Notes: generated by a model not told the origin, from the letters alone. Positions 4,290-27,845 are shown, counted from the stretch's first letter. The stretch: DNA of 33,361 nt from an archaeon RBG_16_50_20 (GCA_001768965.1 MEMY01000095.1:1-33361); one strand, 5' to 3'. Translations and numbers: made by a program.

Positions 4290-7200
4290 CGGCCTTCACC
4301 TCCTGCATCGGTAAGCCGACCACTTGAGACGTCCCCTCTTGAATGAAAACTCCATAGACACTGTCGGCTCTTGCGATCGTCACGTCCTTCAATGATACTA
4401 CGATGAACTGAGAACCCTTGGATTTCGACTTGAGAAGCTCTGCGAGTCGTTGAGAGTTGACAACATCCAAGTGGGCATCCATCTCGTCCATCATGTAGAA
4501 GGGCATTGGATGGATCGCCTGCAAAGCTAGGATGAAGCACACTGTCCCGACGGATTTCTCGCCCCCGCTCGCGCTACCAATCGTCATCTCAGTCTTGCCG
4601 GGGAACTGTAGGCGTATGTCTGCTCCAGCTTCAAATGGGTTTTCGGGTTTCTCTAAGAACAGACGTCCCGCGCCTCCAGTGACCGTGGAGAAGATCTCGT
4701 TGAACGATTGGCTTACTTGGTTGAAGGCTTTCATGAAAGCTTCAAGCTTCTGTCGATCGACCTCGTTCATGAACTGGACAATCGACAGCTTCTCCTTTTC
4801 GAGATCATAGATCCTTGAAGCAAGGTGCTTGTAATTCTCCTTCACCTCTTCGTACTGCGACGCTGCAAGCTCGTTTACCCCGCCGATCGCCGCGATTTCC
4901 TTCTTCAGAATTGGTAGAGTCTTCTCTACGCCTTCTATCTCCTCATCAGCAACTTCTACTAGGTCTGAGTAGCCGAGTTCTCTTAGCTCGTTCATGTGGA
5001 ACTCGATTTGCATCCGTTGGTGCTTGGATGAGGCGGTAAGATCTGCCAGTTCCGTGTTTATGGGATCAAGCTCGTCTAGGAGTTTGGTTATCTCGGTCTC
5101 GATCTTCTTAGATTGGCCATCATATTCGTTCCGTTTTGCTTTAACCCCAGAGAGTTCCTCCGACAGTTGTTCTCGGCTTGCCTGTAACGTCTTTAGCTGG
5201 TCTTCGAATTTCGACATTTCAGCCTGCGTTAATGTCAGGTCAGAAGCCAGTTTCTGCAGTTGTTTATCGATGCTTGAGGTTTGGGTCTTGGTTTGTTCGA
5301 CAGAGGGTTCGATGACCGCGACAGTTGAGGATACGGATTCGATTCGACTGTCAGTCTCAATCTTCTGTCTTACTAGATCATTCAATTCAGTTGTAAGCTT
5401 AGCGTGGTCATTCTCCTTTTCTAGAAGTGTAGCGGAGCGAGAGCGTAGCTTCAGCGCGCCCCTATTCCGCTCGTACTCTGACAATCGTTGCTGTATCGGC
5501 TCTTTGTGCGCCACACTTGCCTCCAGGATGGCCTGTTCCGTTCCAATCTCGTGGACAATCTGTTCGATTCGAGTCTCTGTGTCTACGATGCTTCTGCGGG
5601 CCCGGTCCAAGCTCTCGATGAAGGATGCGATTTCTCTTTCAGTTGATCGTATGAGGTTCTGACTTTGTGCCTTTCTCTTACTCTGATCGAGGATCTCTTG
5701 GTCCACTCTATCAATATCCTCACGGGATTTCGCTGCCAGCCGCTCCAAAGAGGATAGCGTGTTTTTCAACTGCTCAACGGTTTGACCATTCAAGAGGAGC
5801 TTGGAGAGGTCGAAGGGCTGTCTGAAATATCCAGTCTCCATGGCGCCGCCCGGTTCATAGAGGTCCCCGGTTGCGGCAACCGCTCTGGTGCCCCTCAGAG
5901 AGGCAAGAAACGCGGATTTCTGGTTAGACGTCAGAATCGTGTCGCCGAACACAAAGTCGACCGCAGCTTTGAAAGGTTCGTCGAAAACGAGCTGGTCTGT
6001 CAAAGGACCGATTATGTTCCGAAGGCCTCTGGGATAATTCACCTTCTTCTGGAACGTAAGGTCTCCGAGTGGGATCAGCTTTACCCGGCCGACCTTCGCC
6101 TTCTTTAGGGCTTCAATGCATGAAACCGCGGTTCCTATGTTCTTCACAACGAGAGCTTTCATCCATCCTGCTGAGGCGGCCTCGACCGCCTTAGAATACC
6201 CATCCTTGACCTTGACGAGTGATAGTAGTCGTCCGTAGACGCCTTGAACTGCACCCGCCTTTGCCATCTCCTCAATTAGGTTTAGCGCTTTGTCCTCAGA
6301 AGCCATGTTCTCCGCTAGGTTCTTCTGAGTCTCAATTTCTACCAGCGCAGAGTTTGCTCGTTTGGCAACCTCGTTAGCGTGCTCTATCTCCTTAGTCCGT
6401 TGCTTCTTAAGCTCCGAATACTCTGCGACCTTCTTGTCAAAGTCCCCTAGCGTCGATTCCTCATCTCGCTTAACGGTCGCTAAGTCCTCAAGACGCTTGG
6501 TGACGGTCTGCAGTAACATTTCGTACTCTTCTTTCCTGGACCTGAGCGTTCGAAGGTGATTCTGAAGAAGGTCGATCTTGGTCGCGCTGGCTTTGATTTG
6601 AGCGTTGAACTTGATGATTCTGTGAGTTTGTGCACTTATCGAACGCTCAAGGTCTTCGGCATCCTTGCTGTTCTCGCCCAGCTTATTCCTAAGTTCGGTC
6701 AGCGTTTTGCTGGACTCGTCAACTTTCACTTGAGTCGCTTCGATTGCTCTGAGAACTTTCGTTTTTTGAATTCTGAGTTGTCGGAGCTCGTTTTTGGAAT
6801 TGCTTATCTTCTGGAGGATCTCTCCAGAGTTCTGTTCGAGATCGGTCTTTTGTTTTTCGAGGGATTTGATGTTTGCTTGTATTGCATTTGCCTGTGCCTT
6901 TAGACTCGCGATGGTTGCGCTGGCGTCACCCATCGCGCCTTGTACTTCGAGCAGTTTGCTGCTGCCCTTTTCGGCTACTGAGTCCTCGTATTCTCGTTTT
7001 TCGGATTCGACCTTTGATTTCTGCCGTATGAGCTCGTCTCTCTTTGCCTTAAGTTCTTGGAGTCTTTGCTGATGTTGGGTGATCTCGCCTTCTAGTTGGC
7101 TTGCTTGCTCCTGAGCTTTCTTGATTTTGTGTGAGAGAGTTTTTGCTTGAAGTTGGGAGATCTCCTTCCTGACTTGGAGGTATTTCAGGTAGTCATTGCG

Positions 7201-9681: not shown

Positions 9682-10581
9682 CTACTCTTCCTCACTGTCC
9701 GAGAGGGAATCGCCCATGAGTGCTTGGAATTCCTCAAAGGACAATTTGCCGCCCGAGCGCACCTTCTCGTTTGCAGCCTCCTTGTACTTCGATTTGAGCT
9801 TCTCGGCTTTCTCAACTTTCGATGAAACCTTAACCTCGCCTATCTGAGTTCGAATCTCGTCAATCCTTTGAAGATTGCTCCTCAGGGTCGCAATGGCTTC
9901 ATGGCGCTCTTTACTCTGTTCAACGTACTTCGCATGTCTCTGATCCGCTTCTTTCTTCTTCTCCGCGAGAACCTTCACAAGTTCATACATGGCTGTATGG
10001 ACGTGTTCGCTTTCGTCAGCGATCTTCGTCAGCTCCTCGTGGGTAGATTGTGCTTGGATTCGAAGAGCCCCCACCTCGACCTTCAGGCGTAGGAGTTTTT
10101 CCCTGACGTTCCTGAGCCCCTTGTGCTTAGCGAGGTTGGTTTCTAACGCACCAATCTTGGCGACTAAGCTCCGTTCGGCCTGTGTGGACAGAGGGTTAGT
10201 CTGAATATACCACTCAAAGCGCTTGATCTGTGTCAGGACCTCAGACATACTGCCATGCAACTGCTCGGAGATCTGACGCGCCTGTTCAAGGAGCTTGGAT
10301 AACGTCTCACGCTTCTTCGACGCCTCGTTCCGAAGCTCATCGCGCTTCGTCTTCAGATCCTTGACTTTGCCGTTCAGTGAATCTCTTTTTTCTTTCAGTT
10401 TCTTGGCTTCAGTCGAGATTCGTTTGACCTCTGCGTTGAGTTCATCGCGCTGCTTCAGGGTTTCATCGATCTGCGTTCTTAGAAGTCTAATTTCGGTCTT
10501 CTTGTTAGCGCTGCTTGCTTTGAGCTGTTCGAGTTCACGATAAAGGTGCTCGACGGGTGTCTGGATTGTTTTTGAATCCAT
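9682..10581 (-). CDS. Archaeal coiled-coil protein (COG1340-like)
   Basis: Heptad-rich throughout, central EWYIQTNPLS..AE..LV hinge, C-terminal GGKLSFEEFQAL. Confidence 0.8.
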   Translation of the reverse strand: MDSKTIQTPVEHLYRELEQLKASSANKKTEIRLLRTQIDETLKQRDELNAEVKRISTEAKKLKEKRDSLNGKVKDLKTKRDELRNEASKKRETLSKLLEQARQISEQLHGSMSEVLTQIKRFEWYIQTNPLSTQAERSLVAKIGALETNLAKHKGLRNVREKLLRLKVEVGALRIQAQSTHEELTKIADESEHVHTAMYELVKVLAEKKKEADQRHAKYVEQSKERHEAIATLRSNLQRIDEIRTQIGEVKVSSKVEKAEKLKSKYKEAANEKVRSGGKLSFEEFQALMGDSLSDSEEE

Positions 10582-22014: not shown

Positions 22015-23292
22015 CTAACTTGCAGAAATTGCGCCCGGAGATTTGCTTCTGAGAATGTTGATCAAATAGCCGGCGTTTAGAGCTGTGAAAACTGAGCCCG
22101 AAAGGAAATTCAACGCGAGTCTTGCGGGACCTATGACCTGAGACAATCCATTTTCGATCTGCCCATAGTCGAGATACACTGGCGACAGGAACCGAATAAG
22201 GAAGAAATTGTTCATTACGAGATATAACAGAGCAACACCCGCAGTCGCCAAGAACATTGGCTTACGCTTGCGATTCCACAAGGCGAAATCAACAGTAGAA
22301 AGGGCGAGCAAGTAAATCGCGTATTGCTCGGTTACTCGACTCTTGAAAACTAGAAATGAAAGGGTCACGACAAGTAGCGATTGTATGAGTCCGTAGTCTG
22401 AATCGAATCCGAATTTCCTATACGCAATCAAGGTGAAGATAATTACTGCGGGGATCCATAACACGCCAAGCAAGTCAGACACAAATGGGTCAAGCGTCGG
22501 AATGATTCCCTGGTAATTGAAGTAGAAGAACAGGTCCCACACGGACATTGATTCGCCAGATCTCGTAACCGTATAGCTTAGTGCGCTCGTGACAGTGGTA
22601 AGGGACCATCCCATTACGGCGAAAGTCGCGGCGGAAAATCCGATTGGTAACGCAATAGCTACCAGAAATGACTGCCAGTTCCGTCTACTTTTGAGGGATA
22701 GAGGGATGGCGTAAATGACGGGTATCGATTTAGCGAATGTGCCCAAACCGGCCCAGAATGCTCTTTTCAAGTGGCGAGTTGTCATAATGGAAATCATAAC
22801 GAACGCCATGGCAAGGGAGTCGAACATTCCCCAGATTCCCGACAGGATTATGGTGAATGGGCAGAGCATCCAGAAACGCAAGACCCAGACAGAAGTATTC
22901 AGGTTCCGCAAGCGCACATAGGAGTAGAGCAGGTAGCCAAGAGCCACATCGCCCAAAATAGTTGGCTGCTTGAGTAACAAGTAGTACAGGAACCTATCAT
23001 TCAAACCAATCGTCAAGTAGAGCATGTACAGCACACCGGTGATAAGGGGCCAGAATGGTAGGTACGCTATTGTCGCACTGTCTCGTAATGTGTAGAGGTT
23101 TGCAAAACTAAGGCCGGGTGCAGGTCCCAGAAATCCGTATGGGTTTCCACCATGTATCATCGCATAGCCCAGTCGCACCCAGAGCTCGAAATCGTACGGA
23201 TGCCCGGTCCAAAACGAGAAGACTTCTCTGATTGTCAAGCCTAAGAGCAATAGCAAGGTGGTTTGCTGCAGGCTCTTCTTAGTGAATTGCAA
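22015..23292 (-). CDS. Polytopic membrane glycosyltransferase, GT-C fold (GT87/DUF2029-like)
   Basis: About 10 hydrophobic segments; first loop GHPYD, YLPFWP, LKQP.ILGD, P..I..S.IWG.FD, K..P, EQY. Confidence 0.7.
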   Translation of the reverse strand: MQFTKKSLQQTTLLLLLGLTIREVFSFWTGHPYDFELWVRLGYAMIHGGNPYGFLGPAPGLSFANLYTLRDSATIAYLPFWPLITGVLYMLYLTIGLNDRFLYYLLLKQPTILGDVALGYLLYSYVRLRNLNTSVWVLRFWMLCPFTIILSGIWGMFDSLAMAFVMISIMTTRHLKRAFWAGLGTFAKSIPVIYAIPLSLKSRRNWQSFLVAIALPIGFSAATFAVMGWSLTTVTSALSYTVTRSGESMSVWDLFFYFNYQGIIPTLDPFVSDLLGVLWIPAVIIFTLIAYRKFGFDSDYGLIQSLLVVTLSFLVFKSRVTEQYAIYLLALSTVDFALWNRKRKPMFLATAGVALLYLVMNNFFLIRFLSPVYLDYGQIENGLSQVIGPARLALNFLSGSVFTALNAGYLINILRSKSPGAISAS

Positions 23293-23326
23293 TTGAGGTC
23301 TACCTGTCAGTTGAATATGTCCATAC

Positions 23327-23382
23327 TTACTACGATTGTAGTAACTTTTTTATATGTTCTCCTCAAACCCAACATTATAACC
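23327..23382. promoter_or_regulatory. Divergent promoter region with inverted repeat
   Basis: TTACTAC-gatt-GTAGTAA (23327-23344) next to AT-rich TATA-like boxes (TTTTATAT near 23347, TTATAA near 23375) between divergent genes. Confidence 0.4.
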
Positions 23383-23413
23383 TGCGTCATACACACATGG
23401 GAAGGCTCTCCAG

Positions 23414-24376
23414 ATGCAAACAACAATTTTAACAAAAGATGCAGATTTAGCGGACATTCGAAGCAATCTGGAGAAAGTTTACGAAGTCTCTGCTTACTTG
23501 GACTTTCCTTTCAGCTTAGATGAAGTAGCCAACTACTTTCTCCCTAATCGAAATATCACCTCCGAAAAGTTACGATTCATGATTTCCAATGGGGATTTCG
23601 CTAATATCCCATTTCAGATCAAAGATGGCTACATTCTGACTCGTGCATCACAGTCGGAGACTCTGCGTTTTGAGAGAGAGCAGATCTCGGGTGAAAAACT
23701 GCAATCAGCGGCGCGGTTCGCTAGAATCCTTACCAAAATAGTTCCCTTCATTCGGACTGTAGCTGTGACCGGTAGTGTTGCGTATGGAAGTGCAGGGAGG
23801 TGGGATGATATCGATCTCTTTGTGGTCACCGAGGGAAAGAGGCTGTGGCTGTCGGTCCTGATGGCTTTGGTAATGGTAAGAGTCGAGAAACTGTTGGGAT
23901 TGGCTCCTTCTCATCTTCTTCCTTTCTGTTTGAGCTACGTTCATGATGAGCAAGGATTCGCAGAAGATGCTTCACGGAACCGAGTCAATCCACTCTTTGC
24001 TCGAGAACTCCTCAAGGCGAAGCCTGTTGCTGGTCCAGAGCAGTACCGACTCATTTTGCAGGAAAATGACTGGGTTGGAGAACTATATTCGGCCCCCTAT
24101 GCAGCTGCATTGAAGGCACTAGATCAGGGACCATTGAACGGAGTTCAACCAAGAGTTGACCAGCCGGGACTGTTTGCGTTATTCTTTGATTGGGCCGAAG
24201 GTATTGTGTATGTCTTTCTGAGTCGCTACCTCAAATTGCGGGCATACTTAACCAACTTGAAGCTCAAGTCACAGAGACAGAAGCTGCGGGTCTTTGAATC
24301 AAGAATTACTCCGAACTCATGCGTATACACATCCAACTTCTACAGATGGCTACATTCACTGTGGGGTGAAAGATAG
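23414..24376 (+). CDS. Uncharacterised Pol-beta-superfamily nucleotidyltransferase-domain protein
   Basis: VAVTGSVAYGSAGRWDDIDLFVV fits hG[GS]-x-DxD; extra N- and C-terminal regions; 320 aa. Confidence 0.75.
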   Translation: MQTTILTKDADLADIRSNLEKVYEVSAYLDFPFSLDEVANYFLPNRNITSEKLRFMISNGDFANIPFQIKDGYILTRASQSETLRFEREQISGEKLQSAARFARILTKIVPFIRTVAVTGSVAYGSAGRWDDIDLFVVTEGKRLWLSVLMALVMVRVEKLLGLAPSHLLPFCLSYVHDEQGFAEDASRNRVNPLFARELLKAKPVAGPEQYRLILQENDWVGELYSAPYAAALKALDQGPLNGVQPRVDQPGLFALFFDWAEGIVYVFLSRYLKLRAYLTNLKLKSQRQKLRVFESRITPNSCVYTSNFYRWLHSLWGER

Positions 24377-25827
24377 TGCCACTGGACTGTTTACTGGTAT
24401 TCCCGTACATGCTAAGTGACGATCCCACACAGAAACGGAAGAGAAGTCCCTTCCCACCTCTTGGCCTGATGTATGTTGCCGCCTCGCTCAGACAAGCAGG
24501 TTACAAAGTGGAAATTCTCGATTGCACATTCATGCAGAGCATCGAGCAAGCCGAACAGATCGTACGGAAGACAGAGGCGCGTTACATCGGCATTCATTCA
24601 ATGATTACCCTAACGCGAAACGCCGTAGCCTTAGCGGAGGCCGCGAAATCAGCGGGAAAGACGGTTATCTACGGCGGACCTGACCCATCTACAGCTCCTG
24701 ACAAGTATCTCAAGAAAGGTTTCGGAGACTACGTCGTCATGGGTGAAGGCGAAAGAACAGCGGTCGAACTCATTAGAGCTCTAGATCGGGGCGAGATTCC
24801 TTTGGACGTGAAGGGCCTTGTCTTTCTGACCGGTGAGGGCTCGATAGTTACCACACCCGCACGGGAGCTCGAACGGGACTTGGATTCCATCTTGTCTCCT
24901 GCCCGTGATCTGATCGACAATGAACACTACAAGGAAGTATGGCGTGCGGATCATGGCTACGCCTTGACCTCAGTGATGACGACTCGCGGCTGTCCCTATG
25001 GTTGTTTCTTCTGCAGCGAGAAGCTGGTCTTCGGGCGCCGTTACACTGTTCGAAGCGCGAACAACGTAGTCGCTGAGCTAGAAGACATCATCCGGAAATA
25101 CGGATACGACAGAGTCTGGTTCGCAGACGACATATTCCCACTGCGCAAAGAACGAACACTCCAGATCTGCAAAGAGATAATCAATCGAGCCCTAGATTTC
25201 ACCTGGTCTTGCTTGGCAAGGGCCGATCTCGTTGACGAAGAAGCACTTGCTTCAATGAAGCAGGCTGGCTGCGACATCGTATTCTTCGGAGTAGAATCAG
25301 GTTCCCAAAGAATGCTCGATGCAATGAACCGGATGATGACAATCGAGCAGATAGCGTCAGGAGTTTCTGCAGCCAAGCGAGTTGGCTTGAAGGTGCATGC
25401 GTTCATGATGGTTGGCTTCCCAGGCGAGAACTACGAATCACTGAAGCAAACGATCGAATTCCTCAAGGAACTGAGCCCTGACGAATTCAGCTTCACAGTG
25501 GCTTATCCACTGCCTGGGACAGAATTATTCCACATGATCGAGCCGATCGATGAGCAGCTTGAATGGCGCGACCCAAGCGAGAACAGGCTCCTGTTCGAAA
25601 GCAACATTCCAGAATGGGGGTTAAAATTCGCTGTCTGGAAGGCCAAGTACGAGTTCTACCTCTACCGTCGCATAAAGCGTGGTCAGACCATTTTCCGCGT
25701 GGCGTTCATACTCTTCAAGAAACCAACCGACATCGTCCTCCGCCTTTCGGTGCCCAAGGAGGCTATGGCTCCGAAACTCAGCAAATGCGCGATCATGTCC
25801 GAAGTGCTCGCGAGGCTCCCGCGGTAG
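24376..25827 (+). CDS. Cobalamin-binding (class B) radical SAM protein
   Basis: N-terminal B12 domain (PPLGLMYVAA, GGP, GEGE), TRGCPYGCFFC, FADD.F, GVESGSQ.ML, MVGFPGE, YPLPGT. Confidence 0.92.
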   Translation: MPLDCLLVFPYMLSDDPTQKRKRSPFPPLGLMYVAASLRQAGYKVEILDCTFMQSIEQAEQIVRKTEARYIGIHSMITLTRNAVALAEAAKSAGKTVIYGGPDPSTAPDKYLKKGFGDYVVMGEGERTAVELIRALDRGEIPLDVKGLVFLTGEGSIVTTPARELERDLDSILSPARDLIDNEHYKEVWRADHGYALTSVMTTRGCPYGCFFCSEKLVFGRRYTVRSANNVVAELEDIIRKYGYDRVWFADDIFPLRKERTLQICKEIINRALDFTWSCLARADLVDEEALASMKQAGCDIVFFGVESGSQRMLDAMNRMMTIEQIASGVSAAKRVGLKVHAFMMVGFPGENYESLKQTIEFLKELSPDEFSFTVAYPLPGTELFHMIEPIDEQLEWRDPSENRLLFESNIPEWGLKFAVWKAKYEFYLYRRIKRGQTIFRVAFILFKKPTDIVLRLSVPKEAMAPKLSKCAIMSEVLARLPR

Positions 25828-25835
25828 GAATACCA

Positions 25836-26753
25836 TTGATCCCTCTCACAATCGGCATCTGTGCGTACAATGAAGAGTGGAACATAGGTGAGCTTCTAAC
25901 AAACATACTTAGCATCCAAGGGATTCCCAAGGATGCGGAAGTAATCGCCGTTTGCTCCGGATGCCAAGACGGGACGGCAGAGGTTGTCCGGGAATTTGCT
26001 CGCAGAGACCGTCGTGTGAAACTGATAGAAGAGCCAAGAAGACTGGGAAAGGCTGCGGCCGTGAACAAGATTCTATCTAAGGCTAAAGGCGAACAGATAG
26101 TGTTTGTTTCTGCCGACGTCATTCCGAGGCAAGACTGCATAATGAGTCTCGTAAGGACAATGGCAGATGAGAATGTCGGGATAGCCTGCGGAAGACCCGA
26201 ACCAATTCCCCGTGGAAGGAAGCTTGTGAAAGGGCTCGTAGAGACGCTGTGGGGATTTCATAACTGGCAGTTGGAGAAGCTGAACCACGCAGGAGTCCTA
26301 ATGCACGCCAGCGAAGTTTTCTGTGTCAGGAATGGGATTGTAAAGCAGATTCCCCGGGGGTTGGTGAACGATGACGCTTTCCTTGCTGTTGCTGCGAAGG
26401 GTAGAGGATATCGAATCAAATACGTTCCGCAATCTGAGGTTAAGGTCTTCGGACCCCAGACTATCTCCGATTACCTGACACAGCGGCGTCGCATTATTGC
26501 CGGGCACTATCAAGTTCGCTCGGCAACTGGCCATTTCTCTCAGTACCTCTTCTACTCCCTTCTTGCGAGGCCGAAGCTAACTTTGGAGACTTTGGCTGGA
26601 TATTTCGCCAAGAAACGAAAAATCGCGGGTGGGTTGGTTGCTGGGTTGGTTGAAGTGATGGCAAACTTGCTCGCGTTATCTGACATTGTCAGAGGGAGAT
26701 CTCATGCGGTATGGAGTATCTCCTCTACTGCGAAGACAGCGACTGAACTTTGA
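25836..26753 (+). CDS. Glycosyltransferase family 2
   Basis: IGICAYNEE, DGT, GKAAAVN, SADV, NDD, QRRRI. TTG 25836 just after the radical SAM stop is preferred over 25563. Confidence 0.88.
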   Translation: MIPLTIGICAYNEEWNIGELLTNILSIQGIPKDAEVIAVCSGCQDGTAEVVREFARRDRRVKLIEEPRRLGKAAAVNKILSKAKGEQIVFVSADVIPRQDCIMSLVRTMADENVGIACGRPEPIPRGRKLVKGLVETLWGFHNWQLEKLNHAGVLMHASEVFCVRNGIVKQIPRGLVNDDAFLAVAAKGRGYRIKYVPQSEVKVFGPQTISDYLTQRRRIIAGHYQVRSATGHFSQYLFYSLLARPKLTLETLAGYFAKKRKIAGGLVAGLVEVMANLLALSDIVRGRSHAVWSISSTAKTATEL

Positions 26754-27199
26754 ATCACCCAAGCTCTACTCGTTTATTCAACCGGATTCATCGGCTCGTA
26801 TTCCTATACCTCTTCAGGGACTTCGACAAGGGCACTTTGGACACTGGTATCGAGTTCACGACTCTGCTCCCCCTGAGGAAGGACAGAGTGATATGCCGGG
26901 CGATGACGTTCAACATCAAAGGACTCAAACGAGACTCATTCGTCGTCGACGGATCAAATCGTAGAATAGTCAATCTGCCGGGACGCTACGTTTGCTATTG
27001 GATCAACGGGAAGCAAGATTCCGCAACGATATACAACCGACCATATCGAAGAAGCTCGGACGGCTCTTATGTTCACAGCTCAAGAAATGCAAAAAGCGAA
27101 GTTGCCTTTGATGGTGAAGGGTTAGAGAAGAGAGCTGAGAATCTAGTTTCCGGGCCTAGACGGTATCACGAGATATTCGTGCGACTCTTTCGATTCTGA
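26750..27199 (+). CDS. Hypothetical protein
   Basis: TTGA start/stop overlap with GT2; fills the gap up to the convergent gene; no family recognised. Confidence 0.6.
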   Translation: MNHPSSTRLFNRIHRLVFLYLFRDFDKGTLDTGIEFTTLLPLRKDRVICRAMTFNIKGLKRDSFVVDGSNRRIVNLPGRYVCYWINGKQDSATIYNRPYRRSSDGSYVHSSRNAKSEVAFDGEGLEKRAENLVSGPRRYHEIFVRLFRF

Positions 27200-27206
27200 C
27201 TCGCGT

Positions 27207-27845
27207 TCAGCGGACGCTGTGGAAGGCCAGTGTGGCGCACGTGACTAGCAGAGAAAGGCTGGAAAAGATTGCGTATGCAGAGTAGATTTGAGTCAGTAGA
27301 TCGGGCTCGTAGTAGAGGAAGCCCTGAGTAGCTGTTAACAGAAGGGGAGGAACCCAAAGCAACAGCCACAGTCTTGTCCACTTGGTTCGGGGCAGTTGCA
27401 TCTTCCAATCGCCAGAACTGATGAAGAGCATCAGGAAAAGCAGGAATCCAATTATCTCCAGCGCAATCTCAACTGTAGGATTATTTTCGGACAGGTTGAG
27501 GCCGGTTTCTGATAGCGTCAGTGGAAACAGAAGAGGAATGTGGTTTGCCACTAGGTCGCCGAACATTGGGTGCTGCAACACTCCGACGAAGTAAGGAAGA
27601 GTCCGCGCGCCGAAAACGTAGAAAAATGGCAACGAAATCAGGACGATCACGACCCACGAGTGCGAAATTCCGTGATGCCCAAACAATGTCCCATACGGTT
27701 GGCTGGTGAAAAGGTCGAAATCTGGAAGAGCTCCGACTAGAATCAGCAACGCTAGATTGGGCTTAGTTGTTTGAAAACGTGCCGTCGCTTTCCCGAACAC
27801 GTAACCCCAAACCATGTGACTTGATATAATCATCCTAGAAACCAA
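27207..27845 (-). CDS. Membrane-bound metal-dependent hydrolase (YdjM/DUF457-like)
   Basis: N-terminal SH, GALPDFD, HHGISHS, H...D, LLFP; several TM segments. Confidence 0.75.
   Translation of the reverse strand: MVSRMIISSHMVWGYVFGKATARFQTTKPNLALLILVGALPDFDLFTSQPYGTLFGHHGISHSWVVIVLISLPFFYVFGARTLPYFVGVLQHPMFGDLVANHIPLLFPLTLSETGLNLSENNPTVEIALEIIGFLLFLMLFISSGDWKMQLPRTKWTRLWLLLWVPPLLLTATQGFLYYEPDLLTQIYSAYAIFSSLSLLVTCATLAFHSVR

Follow-up and report, generated by a model that had tools for sequence, protein, structure and literature searches.

A candidate surface glycoconjugate-tailoring module, with a cobalamin-type radical SAM enzyme, in a variable glycosylation island of a soil Bathyarchaeia archaeon

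The DNA analysed here (the window, 33,361 nt) belongs to a contig of a Bathyarchaeia archaeon from soil. It carries a block of genes coding for a GT-C-like protein, a nucleotidyltransferase-like protein (NTase), a B12 radical SAM enzyme, a GT2 glycosyltransferase, an orphan protein and a YdjM-like protein, arranged as follows.

22015-23292, minus strand: GT-C-like gene, 425 aa
23293-23413: divergent spacer and promoter region, 121 nt
23414-24376, plus strand: NTase gene, 320 aa
24376-25827, plus strand: B12 radical SAM gene, 483 aa
25836-26753, plus strand: GT2 gene, TTG start, 305 aa
26750-27199, plus strand: orphan gene, 149 aa
27207-27845, minus strand: YdjM-like gene, 212 aa, convergent with the operon

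Base 24376 is common to the TAG of the NTase gene and the GTG of the radical SAM gene, an 8-nt gap (25828-25835, the gaatacca region) precedes the TTG of the GT2 gene, and the GT2 and orphan genes overlap in TTGA at 26750-26753. These overlaps and the short gap indicate translational coupling from NTase through to orphan. Profile matches placed housekeeping genes on both sides, namely Sua5, THUMP, Cgi121 and a phosphoribosyltransferase (PRT) on the left and a presenilin-like protease, an archaemetzincin and aCPSF on the right. The ORFs, junctions and flanks were all confirmed, and the block is as the original prediction had described it, with four coupled plus-strand genes, a divergent GT-C gene and housekeeping genes at either end. 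Contigs from other public runs, possibly including the source sample, span both PRT to NTase, through GT-C, and radical SAM to presenilin without a joint. The source assembly (G000) comprises 1.34 Mb and is 67.5% complete; a close relative used for comparison (G020) is 88% complete.

The NTase consists of an N-terminal winged helix and a Pol-beta-fold nucleotidyltransferase-like core, matched by PF01909 with 26.1 bits against a cut-off of 21. The hG[GS] motif, the DxD pair and the third acidic residue of this fold are all present on the core. G120/S121 (TGS), D132-I-D134 and D178/E179 do not vary among 17 close relatives, and for G120, D132 and D134 this extends to 15 distant relatives of 18–25% identity. 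An AF2 model was obtained at pLDDT 84. In structure comparison, residues 1-80 resembled winged-helix DNA-binding domains (Z up to 7.6), and residues 90-220 resembled DrrA and, as best fold matches (Z 5.8–7.8), ANT(4'), AAD(9), LinB and MNT antitoxins. ANT and LinB enzymes transfer nucleotidyl groups to the hydroxyls of sugars. The likeness extends to the minimal core only, at 11–18% identity; in contrast to those proteins, the NTase has a winged-helix head and a C-terminal region (255-320) that are unmatched, and it has no HEPN partner. A LicD/FKRP relationship was not detected, either as a PF04991 match at E ≤0.01 or as a chain among the Foldseek/VIA matches listed for the NTase.

The radical SAM enzyme matched PF02310 over residues 26-132 (75.5 bits against a cut-off of 32.1), which places a B12-binding domain at its N-terminus, and PF04055 with 99.5 bits, likewise above the Pfam cut-off. 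Its CX3CX2C motif, C206-x3-C210-x2-C213, is invariant in 24 orthologues. The highest NCBIfam scores were those of PhpK (165.2 bits against 600), HpnJ (161 against 577.6) and BchE (150 against 481), followed by the ladderane and Mmp10-type models (149 each, both against 360) and the Sden_1168 P-methyltransferase model (141). Every NCBIfam equivalog cut-off was missed, including those of AprD4, HpnR, BzaD, TsrM-type and other models, a result in favour of the original prediction. Among PDB sequences the closest was AprD4 (6fd2, E 1.3e-31), an enzyme reported to lack a cobalamin cofactor. HpnJ, BchE, AprD4 and OxsB are class B enzymes that do not methylate, and the window's protein scored about as well with models of methylases as with those of non-methylases. 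By its domains and motif, it is predicted to be a cobalamin-binding class B enzyme of an uncharacterized subfamily. The source assembly contains no other strong B12 radical SAM match, and when 22 further genomes from the genus were searched, just one had an orthologue.

The GT-C protein matched no Pfam family at E ≤0.01 and falls below the Pfam gathering score for GT87/PIG-M. When 47 relatives were aligned, however, 22 of them matched PF09594 (GT87), two each PIG-U, PIG-M and ALG6/8, and one ALG3, and a search with the family profile reached chains of GPI mannosyltransferase 1 (E 3.7e-23). An AF2 model (pLDDT 93, 19 helices) gave as best Foldseek match a GPI mannosyltransferase I with Dol-P-Man (9wno_A, E 7.6e-6, TM 0.66/0.69), followed by PIG-U and then by PimE (9dm5, TM 0.57/0.62). 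D34, in the motif HPYDFE, comes right behind helix 1 and hardly varies among the 47 sequences; GT-C enzymes have their catalytic Asp, a conserved residue, in the first extracytoplasmic loop. Profile and model thus point to a polytopic membrane protein with a predicted GT-C fold of the PIG-M/PimE (GT87) branch, outside formal Pfam membership. PIG-U, which stands among the top structural matches, is a non-catalytic relative.

The GT2 protein (PF00535, 86 bits; PF13641, 79 bits; both above the Pfam cut-offs) has a single C-terminal hydrophobic helix by hydropathy, at about residues 263-285. Its closest PDB sequence match was a GT2-family chain, 6yv7 (E 6e-13, N-terminal 120 aa only), and weaker matches were the GtrB-type 5ekp (3.4e-6) and the Dol-P-Man synthase (DPMS) 5mlz (1e-3). 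The NCBIfam scores were 64.7 bits for PgaC/IcaA (cut-off 422), 21 for ArnC (529) and 15 for HpnI (310). A role in loading a lipid carrier is uncertain, since the scores lie nearer to PgaC/NodC-type enzymes and 6yv7 than to GtrB or Dol-P-Man synthases.

The orphan is a basic, soluble protein of 149 aa, coupled to GT2 and restricted to the lineage, with no match in Pfam or NCBIfam and no usable match in the Atlas. Comparison with the copy in G020 (60% identity) gave pS 0.81 against pN 0.26. Its family forms 20 clusters (54–96% identity) among 5.8 billion proteins, and four of these clusters lie on contigs equal in size to contigs that carry radical SAM orthologues. The YdjM-like membrane protein passes the Pfam cut-off for PF04307 (41.9 bits) and adjoins the orphan elsewhere only at the G020 locus, L021 (61% identity); tblastn found none in the other loci searched. 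Neither gene was found near the distant copies of the cluster in G346 and G429. The suggestion that the YdjM-like hydrolase closes the system found no support, because that gene, like the orphan, is shared solely with the close relative that carries the radical SAM variant; it is a neighbour outside the conserved set.

Across genomes, the NTase adjoins the GT2 in all 19 testable loci, on the same strand in 18 of them; a twentieth (L032), in which the contig ends inside the NTase, was left out of this count. The radical SAM gene lies between the two in four loci only, namely the window, L021, L069 and L070. Two of these four loci, with the order NTase, radical SAM, GT2, belong to genomes of another archaeal class, G346 and G429, with identities to the window of 51% (radical SAM), 25–27% (NTase) and 27–29% (GT2). 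G429 has in addition a divergent GT-C gene, as in the window, at 32% identity, and the flanks (OsmC, DHODH, HTH) are unrelated to the window's. The expectation that the genes would be found together elsewhere was thus borne out. A homologue of the window's GT-C is present in 8 of the 20 NTase loci; none was found within 7 kb in L021, the closest radical SAM-bearing relative, so this gene is not obligatory.

A class I methyltransferase of about 400 aa occurs in 17 of the 19 NTase-GT2 loci without a radical SAM gene, the misses being L034 and the truncated L032, and in none of the four radical SAM-bearing loci. This alternation suggests that the radical SAM enzyme is a substitute methylase, and it lends indirect support to the radical methylation that had been proposed. 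Within the genus, the interval bounded by the PRT and presenilin-like genes is syntenic in position and varies in gene content; islands elsewhere in the genus contain other GT2s, GT4s, PIG-L and methyltransferases, with a PIG-L-type deacetylase in L026 and L028. Many of the loci counted come from this one genus and are not independent. Overall, the block forms a variable glycosylation island built around a core of NTase and membrane-anchored GT2, in which the radical SAM gene is an accessory insert and not a fixed partner.

The pairing of NTase and radical SAM extends to metagenomes. Among 80 metagenome loci with radical SAM paralogues of 31–42% identity, an NTase-family ORF was present in 32 and lay directly upstream on the same strand in 26; where at least 900 nt of upstream sequence was available, the upstream same-strand arrangement was found in 24 of 50 loci. 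These loci were chosen through the radical SAM gene, and the frequencies are not population estimates for the NTase. Three of five annotated loci have GT4, Wzy_C and Wzx-type genes around an NTase-radical SAM-methyltransferase set, and the presence of Wzx/Wzy, GT4 and OMP beta-barrel genes gives the loci of these relatives a bacterial appearance. The NTase is fused to a GT4 in L108, L117 and L145, and a single ORF in L077 joins an NTase to a B12 radical SAM enzyme. The NTase had been proposed to activate the substrate in a first step, a view that was not upheld, as the GT4 fusions fit a transferase acting on glycans at least as well.

The inverted repeat noted earlier in the 121-nt divergent region, TTACTAC-GATT-GTAGTAA (23327-23344), lies immediately 5' of a TATA-like TTTTTTATAT box and recurs upstream of the NTase in relatives. 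It is unremarkable as a single-sequence fold (z 0.80). Its core, TACTAC-N3-7-GTAGTA, occurs once in the window and in none of 100 shuffles, and that single occurrence is the only one in the whole G000 assembly; G020 likewise has one. In eight aligned NTase upstream regions, 55% identical elsewhere, the palindrome and TATA box are invariant columns. Of 15 Bathyarchaeia-type loci, 11 have an exact match to the pattern ahead of the NTase gene, and in each of the 11 it is the sole match. A pattern search of the distant NTase loci L035-L039, L069 and L070 did not find it. The palindrome is a predicted conserved operator at the TATA box, and because the operon and the GT-C gene have this promoter region in common, joint regulation of the whole set is probable.

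The association of palindrome and NTase raises a different explanation, that the NTase is mainly a regulator, the winged helix binding the palindrome and the NTase domain sensing or modifying a ligand, with GT2, a class I or radical SAM methylase and GT-C as the enzymes. The likeness of the first 80 residues to DNA-binding domains would fit this, as would the tie of the palindrome to NTase genes, with sole matches in G000 and G020 and, in G014, one copy at the NTase promoter and one at a second promoter of the same island. Yet the catalytic G-S/DxD residues are invariant even among homologues of 18–25% identity, the seven distant loci have the NTase without the palindrome, and both fusion to GT4 or radical SAM proteins and translational coupling to the radical SAM gene are typical of pathway enzymes. 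A mainly regulatory NTase is accordingly judged unlikely.

On balance, the cluster probably represents an uncharacterized surface glycoconjugate-tailoring module in a hypervariable glycosylation island of a soil Bathyarchaeia archaeon. Most likely this conserved and so far unstudied gene set assembles a sugar on a lipid carrier in the membrane and modifies it chemically, for subsequent attachment at the cell surface. On the cytoplasmic side, the tail-anchored GT2 would use a nucleotide sugar to glycosylate an acceptor in the membrane, either a lipid-linked glycan or a carrier of the polyprenyl/dolichyl phosphate type. This sugar would then be tailored by the NTase, as a winged-helix/Pol-beta-fold transferase, and by the cobalamin radical SAM enzyme. 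The radical SAM enzyme would most probably methylate an unactivated carbon, filling the slot that a class I SAM methyltransferase occupies in sister islands. After flipping, the PIG-M/PimE-like GT-C would transfer the lipid-phosphate-linked sugar to a glycolipid or glycoprotein glycan at the outer face. Families, folds, conserved linkage and conserved operator are what the analysis shows, and it is the substrates, the step order and the chemistry that we infer. Of the original prediction, the recurrence of the genes and, indirectly, the methylating role were retained; the tetraether link, the closing hydrolase and the opening nucleotidyl transfer were not.

Extracytoplasmic glycosylation by three components, a GT2 polyprenyl-phosphate sugar synthase, a flippase and a GT-C, is known from DPM1/PIG-M (GPI), Ppm1/PimE (mycobacterial PIMs), GtrB/GtrA/GtrC and ArnC/ArnT. 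The window resembles these systems in its membrane-anchored GT2 and its linked, divergent GT-C best matching PIG-M/PimE, and sister islands have in addition members of GT4 and PIG-L, the families that carry out steps one and two of GPI assembly. Unlike them, the window's cluster lacks a flippase gene (no GtrA or Wzx in a Pfam search), its GT2 is no recognizable DPM/GtrB orthologue, and a Pol-beta-fold NTase and a B12 radical SAM enzyme stand between promoter and GT2; to our knowledge, these two have no counterpart there.

A GT2 with a cobalamin-type radical SAM enzyme is also found in the HpnI/HpnK/HpnJ and Cds systems, where they act on a lipid-bound sugar. By analogy with the bacteriohopanetetrol cyclitol ether pathway or the Sulfolobus calditol synthase, the GT2 could add a hexose to an archaeal membrane lipid whose ring the radical SAM enzyme contracts to a cyclitol. 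HpnJ ranked second among the NCBIfam models for the window's enzyme and first for its paralogues (171 and 140 bits), and the PIG-L-type deacetylases of L026 and L028 belong to the HpnK fold family. According to PMC13459092, Cds belongs to the radical SAM enzymes and converts a glucose-derived precursor into the calditol head group. The scores for HpnJ and HpnI nevertheless lie far below their cut-offs, the enzyme alternates with a methyltransferase and not with a deacetylase, and the known cyclitol pathways have no role for an NTase or a GT-C. Such a head-group carbocycle therefore seems improbable.

Class B radical SAM enzymes also act on nucleotide-handled substrates, as in Fom1/Fom3 (fosfomycin) and OxsB (deoxyadenosine phosphates), and the NTase gene coupled to the radical SAM gene, a pairing repeated in the 26 metagenome loci, is reminiscent of these. 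It could be supposed that the NTase is LicD/FKRP- or Fom1-like and handles a nucleotide-activated phospho-compound, and that a Fom3/PhpK-like radical SAM enzyme methylates a nucleotide-linked phosphonate destined for a glycan. The substrate of Fom3 is cytidylylated, and the PhpK-family P-methyltransferase model scored highest, with Sden_1168 also represented. That score is, however, far below the cut-off, Fom1 has a cytidylyltransferase fold other than the Pol-beta/MNT/ANT-like fold with a winged-helix head seen here, PF13714 (PEP-mutase superfamily) was not found in G000 or G020, and the annotated loci show a glycosyltransferase context with neither phosphonate genes nor nucleoside antibiotic genes. 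A phosphonate or phospho-ester pathway is thus very improbable.

Least probable of all is the tetraether reading, also part of the original prediction, in which the radical SAM enzyme methylates or cross-links an isoprenoid core and glycosyltransferases decorate the product: GDGT cores are among the substrates of class B enzymes (GrsA/B and GMGT methylase, as described in PMC13459092) and this is the sole strong match in an incomplete assembly, but its rarity in the genus would be odd for a core-lipid trait, it sits between two glycan-type genes, it swaps with a soluble class I methyltransferase, and its relatives pair with an NTase in bacterial-looking polysaccharide loci. The PIG-M/PimE-like GT-C and the Wzx/Wzy context of the pair point instead to a glycan or glycolipid head group.

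Beyond the tailoring module favoured for this island, a wider interpretation can be offered tentatively. The winged-helix NTase and the B12 radical SAM enzyme may constitute a widespread, undescribed glycan-tailoring cassette of bacteria and archaea, with a C-methyl group on a lipid-linked sugar as its likeliest product. In Bathyarchaeia, this cassette might have displaced the ordinary SAM methyltransferase of a conserved NTase-GT2-methylase-GT-C (PIG-M-like) pathway that would lead, under a dedicated palindromic operator, to a GPI/PIM-like surface glycolipid.

The genes, junctions and protein families of the original prediction were borne out by a reading of the sequence together with Pfam matches. 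The block comprises the following features:

22015-23292, minus strand: GT-C-like glycosyltransferase gene (open reading frame)
23293-23413: 121-nt spacer between the GT-C-like gene and the NTase gene
23414-24376, plus strand: NTase (Pfam NTP_transf_2)
24376-25827, plus strand: B12-binding (class B) radical SAM protein, rSAM (Pfam B12-binding and Radical_SAM)
25836-26753, plus strand: GT2 glycosyltransferase with a TTG start (Pfam Glycos_transf_2)
26750-27199, plus strand: 149-aa orphan (open reading frame)
27207-27845, minus strand: YdjM-family membrane protein, convergent to the operon (Pfam YdjM)

NTase and rSAM overlap by one base (TAG/GTG), rSAM and GT2 are separated by 8 nt, and GT2 and the orphan share a TTGA overlap. 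Archaeal housekeeping genes flank the block on the left (Sua5, THUMP, KEOPS Cgi121 and a phosphoribosyltransferase, PRT) and on the right (a presenilin-like protease, archaemetzincin and aCPSF). Every junction of the block is bridged by contigs from other public soil and sediment runs, some of which possibly derive from the source sample. No Rfam family matched in the window at gathering thresholds, and a search of RNA runs found none that contains the stretch.

Relatives of the NTase are encoded in 20 genome loci, of which 19 are testable for an adjoining GT2, since one (L032) is cut; GT2 adjoins the NTase in all 19. In Bathyarchaeia, the chromosomal location of these pairs matches that in the window, flanked by the PRT on one side and by the presenilin-like gene on the other. 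The rest of this island varies by genome and includes extra GT2s, a GT4, a PIG-L-type deacetylase, methyltransferases and membrane proteins without known identity. Homologues of the window's GT-C are present in seven Bathyarchaeia loci at 52–66% identity and in L035 at 38%. The island has been rearranged, since these homologues mostly lie at its opposite end and on the opposite strand compared with the window. Two loci belong to MAGs titled as bacterial, Acidiferrales (L028, DATIYC010000138.1) and Methylomirabilota (L031, DATKOK010000131.1). Both carry archaeal Sua5, THUMP, KEOPS Cgi121 and PRT at 51–77% identity in the window's synteny and are probably mis-binned archaeal contigs; thus, they give no evidence of transfer of the island to bacteria.

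Several details of single islands were also recorded. A 518-aa membrane protein at the divergent position of GT-C in L021, the locus of the close relative G020, showed no similarity to the GT-C family and no Pfam match. The same locus encodes a 445-aa protein (L021:11403-12740), probably a surface protein, in which Lamin-tail and Big_3_5 domains were recognised; its gene separates YdjM from the presenilin-like gene, and the window has no counterpart there. In L016 (G017:C3), from a relative in the genus, the PRT appears to be in two pieces 3.9 kb apart: codons 1–34 lie beside GT-C (5969-6070) and codons 40–237 on the other strand (9952-10545), with a set of a 280-aa protein and rSAM in between. 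The arrangement points to an inversion that broke the PRT gene. L033 contains a stray N-terminal fragment of PRT.

Although it recurs, the rSAM gene is an accessory insert. Within the genus, 22 further genomes yielded a single orthologue, in G020 (80% identity), where the gene order is that of the window, with NTase, rSAM, GT2 and orphan followed by YdjM. The protein database holds about 40 rSAM clusters at 48–99% identity, followed by a drop to 42% or less. A phylum-wide sample of 401 genomes added two orthologues, 51% identical and from another class, both in the order NTase-rSAM-GT2; orphan and YdjM are absent from these distant copies. In one of them, G429, the NTase has a divergently oriented GT-C neighbour (32% identity), as in the window, and the surrounding genes are unrelated. 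Thus, the four-gene architecture is conserved across classes at 25–51% protein identity, and the co-occurrence elsewhere on which the original prediction had staked itself was found. The gene after GT2 in L069, although its product is likewise 149 aa long, encodes OsmC and bears no relation to the orphan.

Of 19 NTase-GT2 loci without rSAM, 17, including four Thermoplasmata loci (34–41% identity), also encode a class I SAM methyltransferase of about 400 aa; none of the four rSAM-bearing loci does. These loci are partly close kin, so the mutual exclusion is to be taken as a pattern and not as a statistic; it looks like the replacement of one methylase by another, non-orthologous one. The sister-island methyltransferase itself had generic matches only.

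The NTase-rSAM pair is far wider in distribution than the Bathyarchaeia island. Searching metagenomes with the alignment of rSAM orthologues retrieved paralogues only (31–42% identity). Among 80 metagenome loci with such paralogues, 32 encode an NTase-family protein, the gene lying immediately upstream of rSAM on the same strand in 26. In three of five annotated loci, NTase, rSAM and a class I methyltransferase stand among genes for GT4, Wzy_C, a 517-aa GT2, a Wzx-type flippase, a nucleoside phosphorylase-family protein and an epimerase. GT4 and NTase appear to form single open frames in L108:3166-5445, L117:3091-5190 and L145:9062-11938, and the apparent single frame L077:1536-5552 joins an N-terminal part without known identity to an NTase domain and a B12 rSAM. 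This distribution suggests that the chemistry of NTase and B12 rSAM is not limited to archaea. In the Wzx/Wzy-type loci L097, L100 and L139 (e.g. L100:9306-10082), the genes downstream of NTase-rSAM regularly include a PNP_UDP_1 gene, of the nucleoside phosphorylase/nucleosidase family, and two for class I methyltransferases; in L087 a ribose-phosphate pyrophosphokinase takes up this position. These genes may serve 5'-deoxyadenosine clearance or nucleoside-derived chemistry.

In a tree of 127 rSAM sequences (FastTree, SH-like support, midpoint root for drawing only), the window's clade of four rows, all NTase-linked, is sister to an archaeal clade with support of 94. The metagenome NTase-linked rSAMs form a separate large clade, which implies that linkage to the NTase is old or came about twice. 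Members of the sister archaeal clade are preceded by a different protein of about 280 aa and often followed by GT87-like genes. The 280-aa protein is related neither to the NTase (hhalign probability 0.3) nor to the orphan (0.1). Archaeal paralogues of about 40% identity occur in this conserved set in L014-L017 and L072-L074 (e.g. L015:6574-10064), in the order soluble 280-aa protein (no Pfam or NCBIfam match), B12 rSAM and often a GT87-like membrane protein. The set looks like a second uncharacterised module of rSAM and GT-C.

GT-C belongs to a small family, with 222 representatives at E ≤1e-3 among 1.84 billion. Pfam GT87 matched 22 of 47 aligned relatives, and a few matched PIG-U, PIG-M, ALG6/8 or ALG3. 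The GT-C profile matched GPI mannosyltransferase 1 chains at E 3.7e-23, and the structural model (pLDDT 93) matched GPI mannosyltransferase I with Dol-P-Man, then PIG-U, PimE and ALG6. Enzymes of the PIG-M/PimE branch of GT-C glycosylate inositol glycolipids from polyprenyl-phosphate sugars. One hydrophobic helix at the C-terminus is common to GT2 and its counterparts at other loci; GT2 matched solved GT2 enzymes only weakly. Judged from sequence, the orphan is a real gene; compared with the G020 copy, pS is 0.81 (synonymous sites saturated) and pN 0.26. Its relatives amount to 20 clusters, four of which share contigs with rSAM orthologues on the circumstantial evidence of contigs of equal size. 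Comparison of the orphan with the Atlas gave no usable match.

The NTase model (pLDDT 84) consists of a winged-helix head (residues 1–80) and a Pol-beta core (residues 90–220). The core is nearest to ANT(4'), MNT, LinB, AAD(9) and DrrA at modest scores (Z ≤7.8), and the NTase profile had no match among PDB sequences. Its G-S and DxD residues are unchanged even in homologues of 18–25% identity. In the spacer upstream of the gene lies a short palindrome (23327-23344) with 7-nt arms, which folds no better than shuffles. It is the best-conserved element of the promoter, with invariant columns TACTAC, GTA and an adjoining TTTTAT box in eight NTase upstream regions of 55% mean identity. Of 15 Bathyarchaeia-type loci, 11 have the exact pattern upstream of their NTase, as the sole match in each of those 11. 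The whole assemblies of the window (G000) and of G020 have one match each, and none was found in two searched genomes of the genus or in the distant loci searched. In G014 the palindrome is present at the NTase promoter and at a second promoter of the same island. The usual site of archaeal repressors is a palindrome abutting the TATA box, and the winged-helix head is a candidate to bind this one. In run X18, one contig agrees with the window downstream of 23335 and has 231 unrelated letters upstream. The break lies inside the palindrome and hints at a strain variant with a different island from that point.

With somewhat better than even confidence, we favour a pathway in which GT2, the NTase-fold transferase and a methylase would build and tailor a membrane-bound sugar on the cytoplasmic side, after which the PIG-M/PimE-like GT-C would transfer the tailored sugar on the outer side. 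This reading is weakest as to what the NTase does: it may activate the substrate, nucleotidylate a sugar hydroxyl, carry out LicD-like phospho-transfer or act as a regulator. In rSAM the CX3CX2C motif is accompanied by a B12-binding domain; the protein lies below all curated subfamily cut-offs, at best 141–165 bits (PhpK, HpnJ, BchE, ladderane, Mmp10-type and AprD4) versus 360–600. Ring contraction of the HpnJ or Cds type is a reasonable competing reading, unlikely as we judge it. Phosphonate decoration is less probable still; the PEP mutase (PF13714) that it leads one to expect was not found in G000 or G020, both incomplete genomes. Modification of the tetraether core lipid by rSAM, proposed in the original prediction, finds little support and is the most improbable of the three.

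Glycosylation on a lipid carrier with GT2 and GT-C is already known; on sequence grounds, the NTase and B12 radical SAM tailoring pair inside it would be new. Searches of an open-access library yielded no paper on a class B radical SAM enzyme in polysaccharide or glycan clusters and no description of the NTase-rSAM-GT2-GT-C cassette. In soils and sediments, Bathyarchaeia are an abundant, uncultured group, and we know of no account of their envelopes. The island supplies four or five definite genes with which to study that envelope by expression and assay. If rSAM does methylate or rearrange a lipid-linked sugar, the substrate range of class B radical SAM enzymes would extend to surface glycans. 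Together with the GT4 and PIG-L of sister islands, the PIG-M-like GT-C also bears on the question whether GPI/PIM-like glycolipids are made in archaea at all by a eukaryote-related route.
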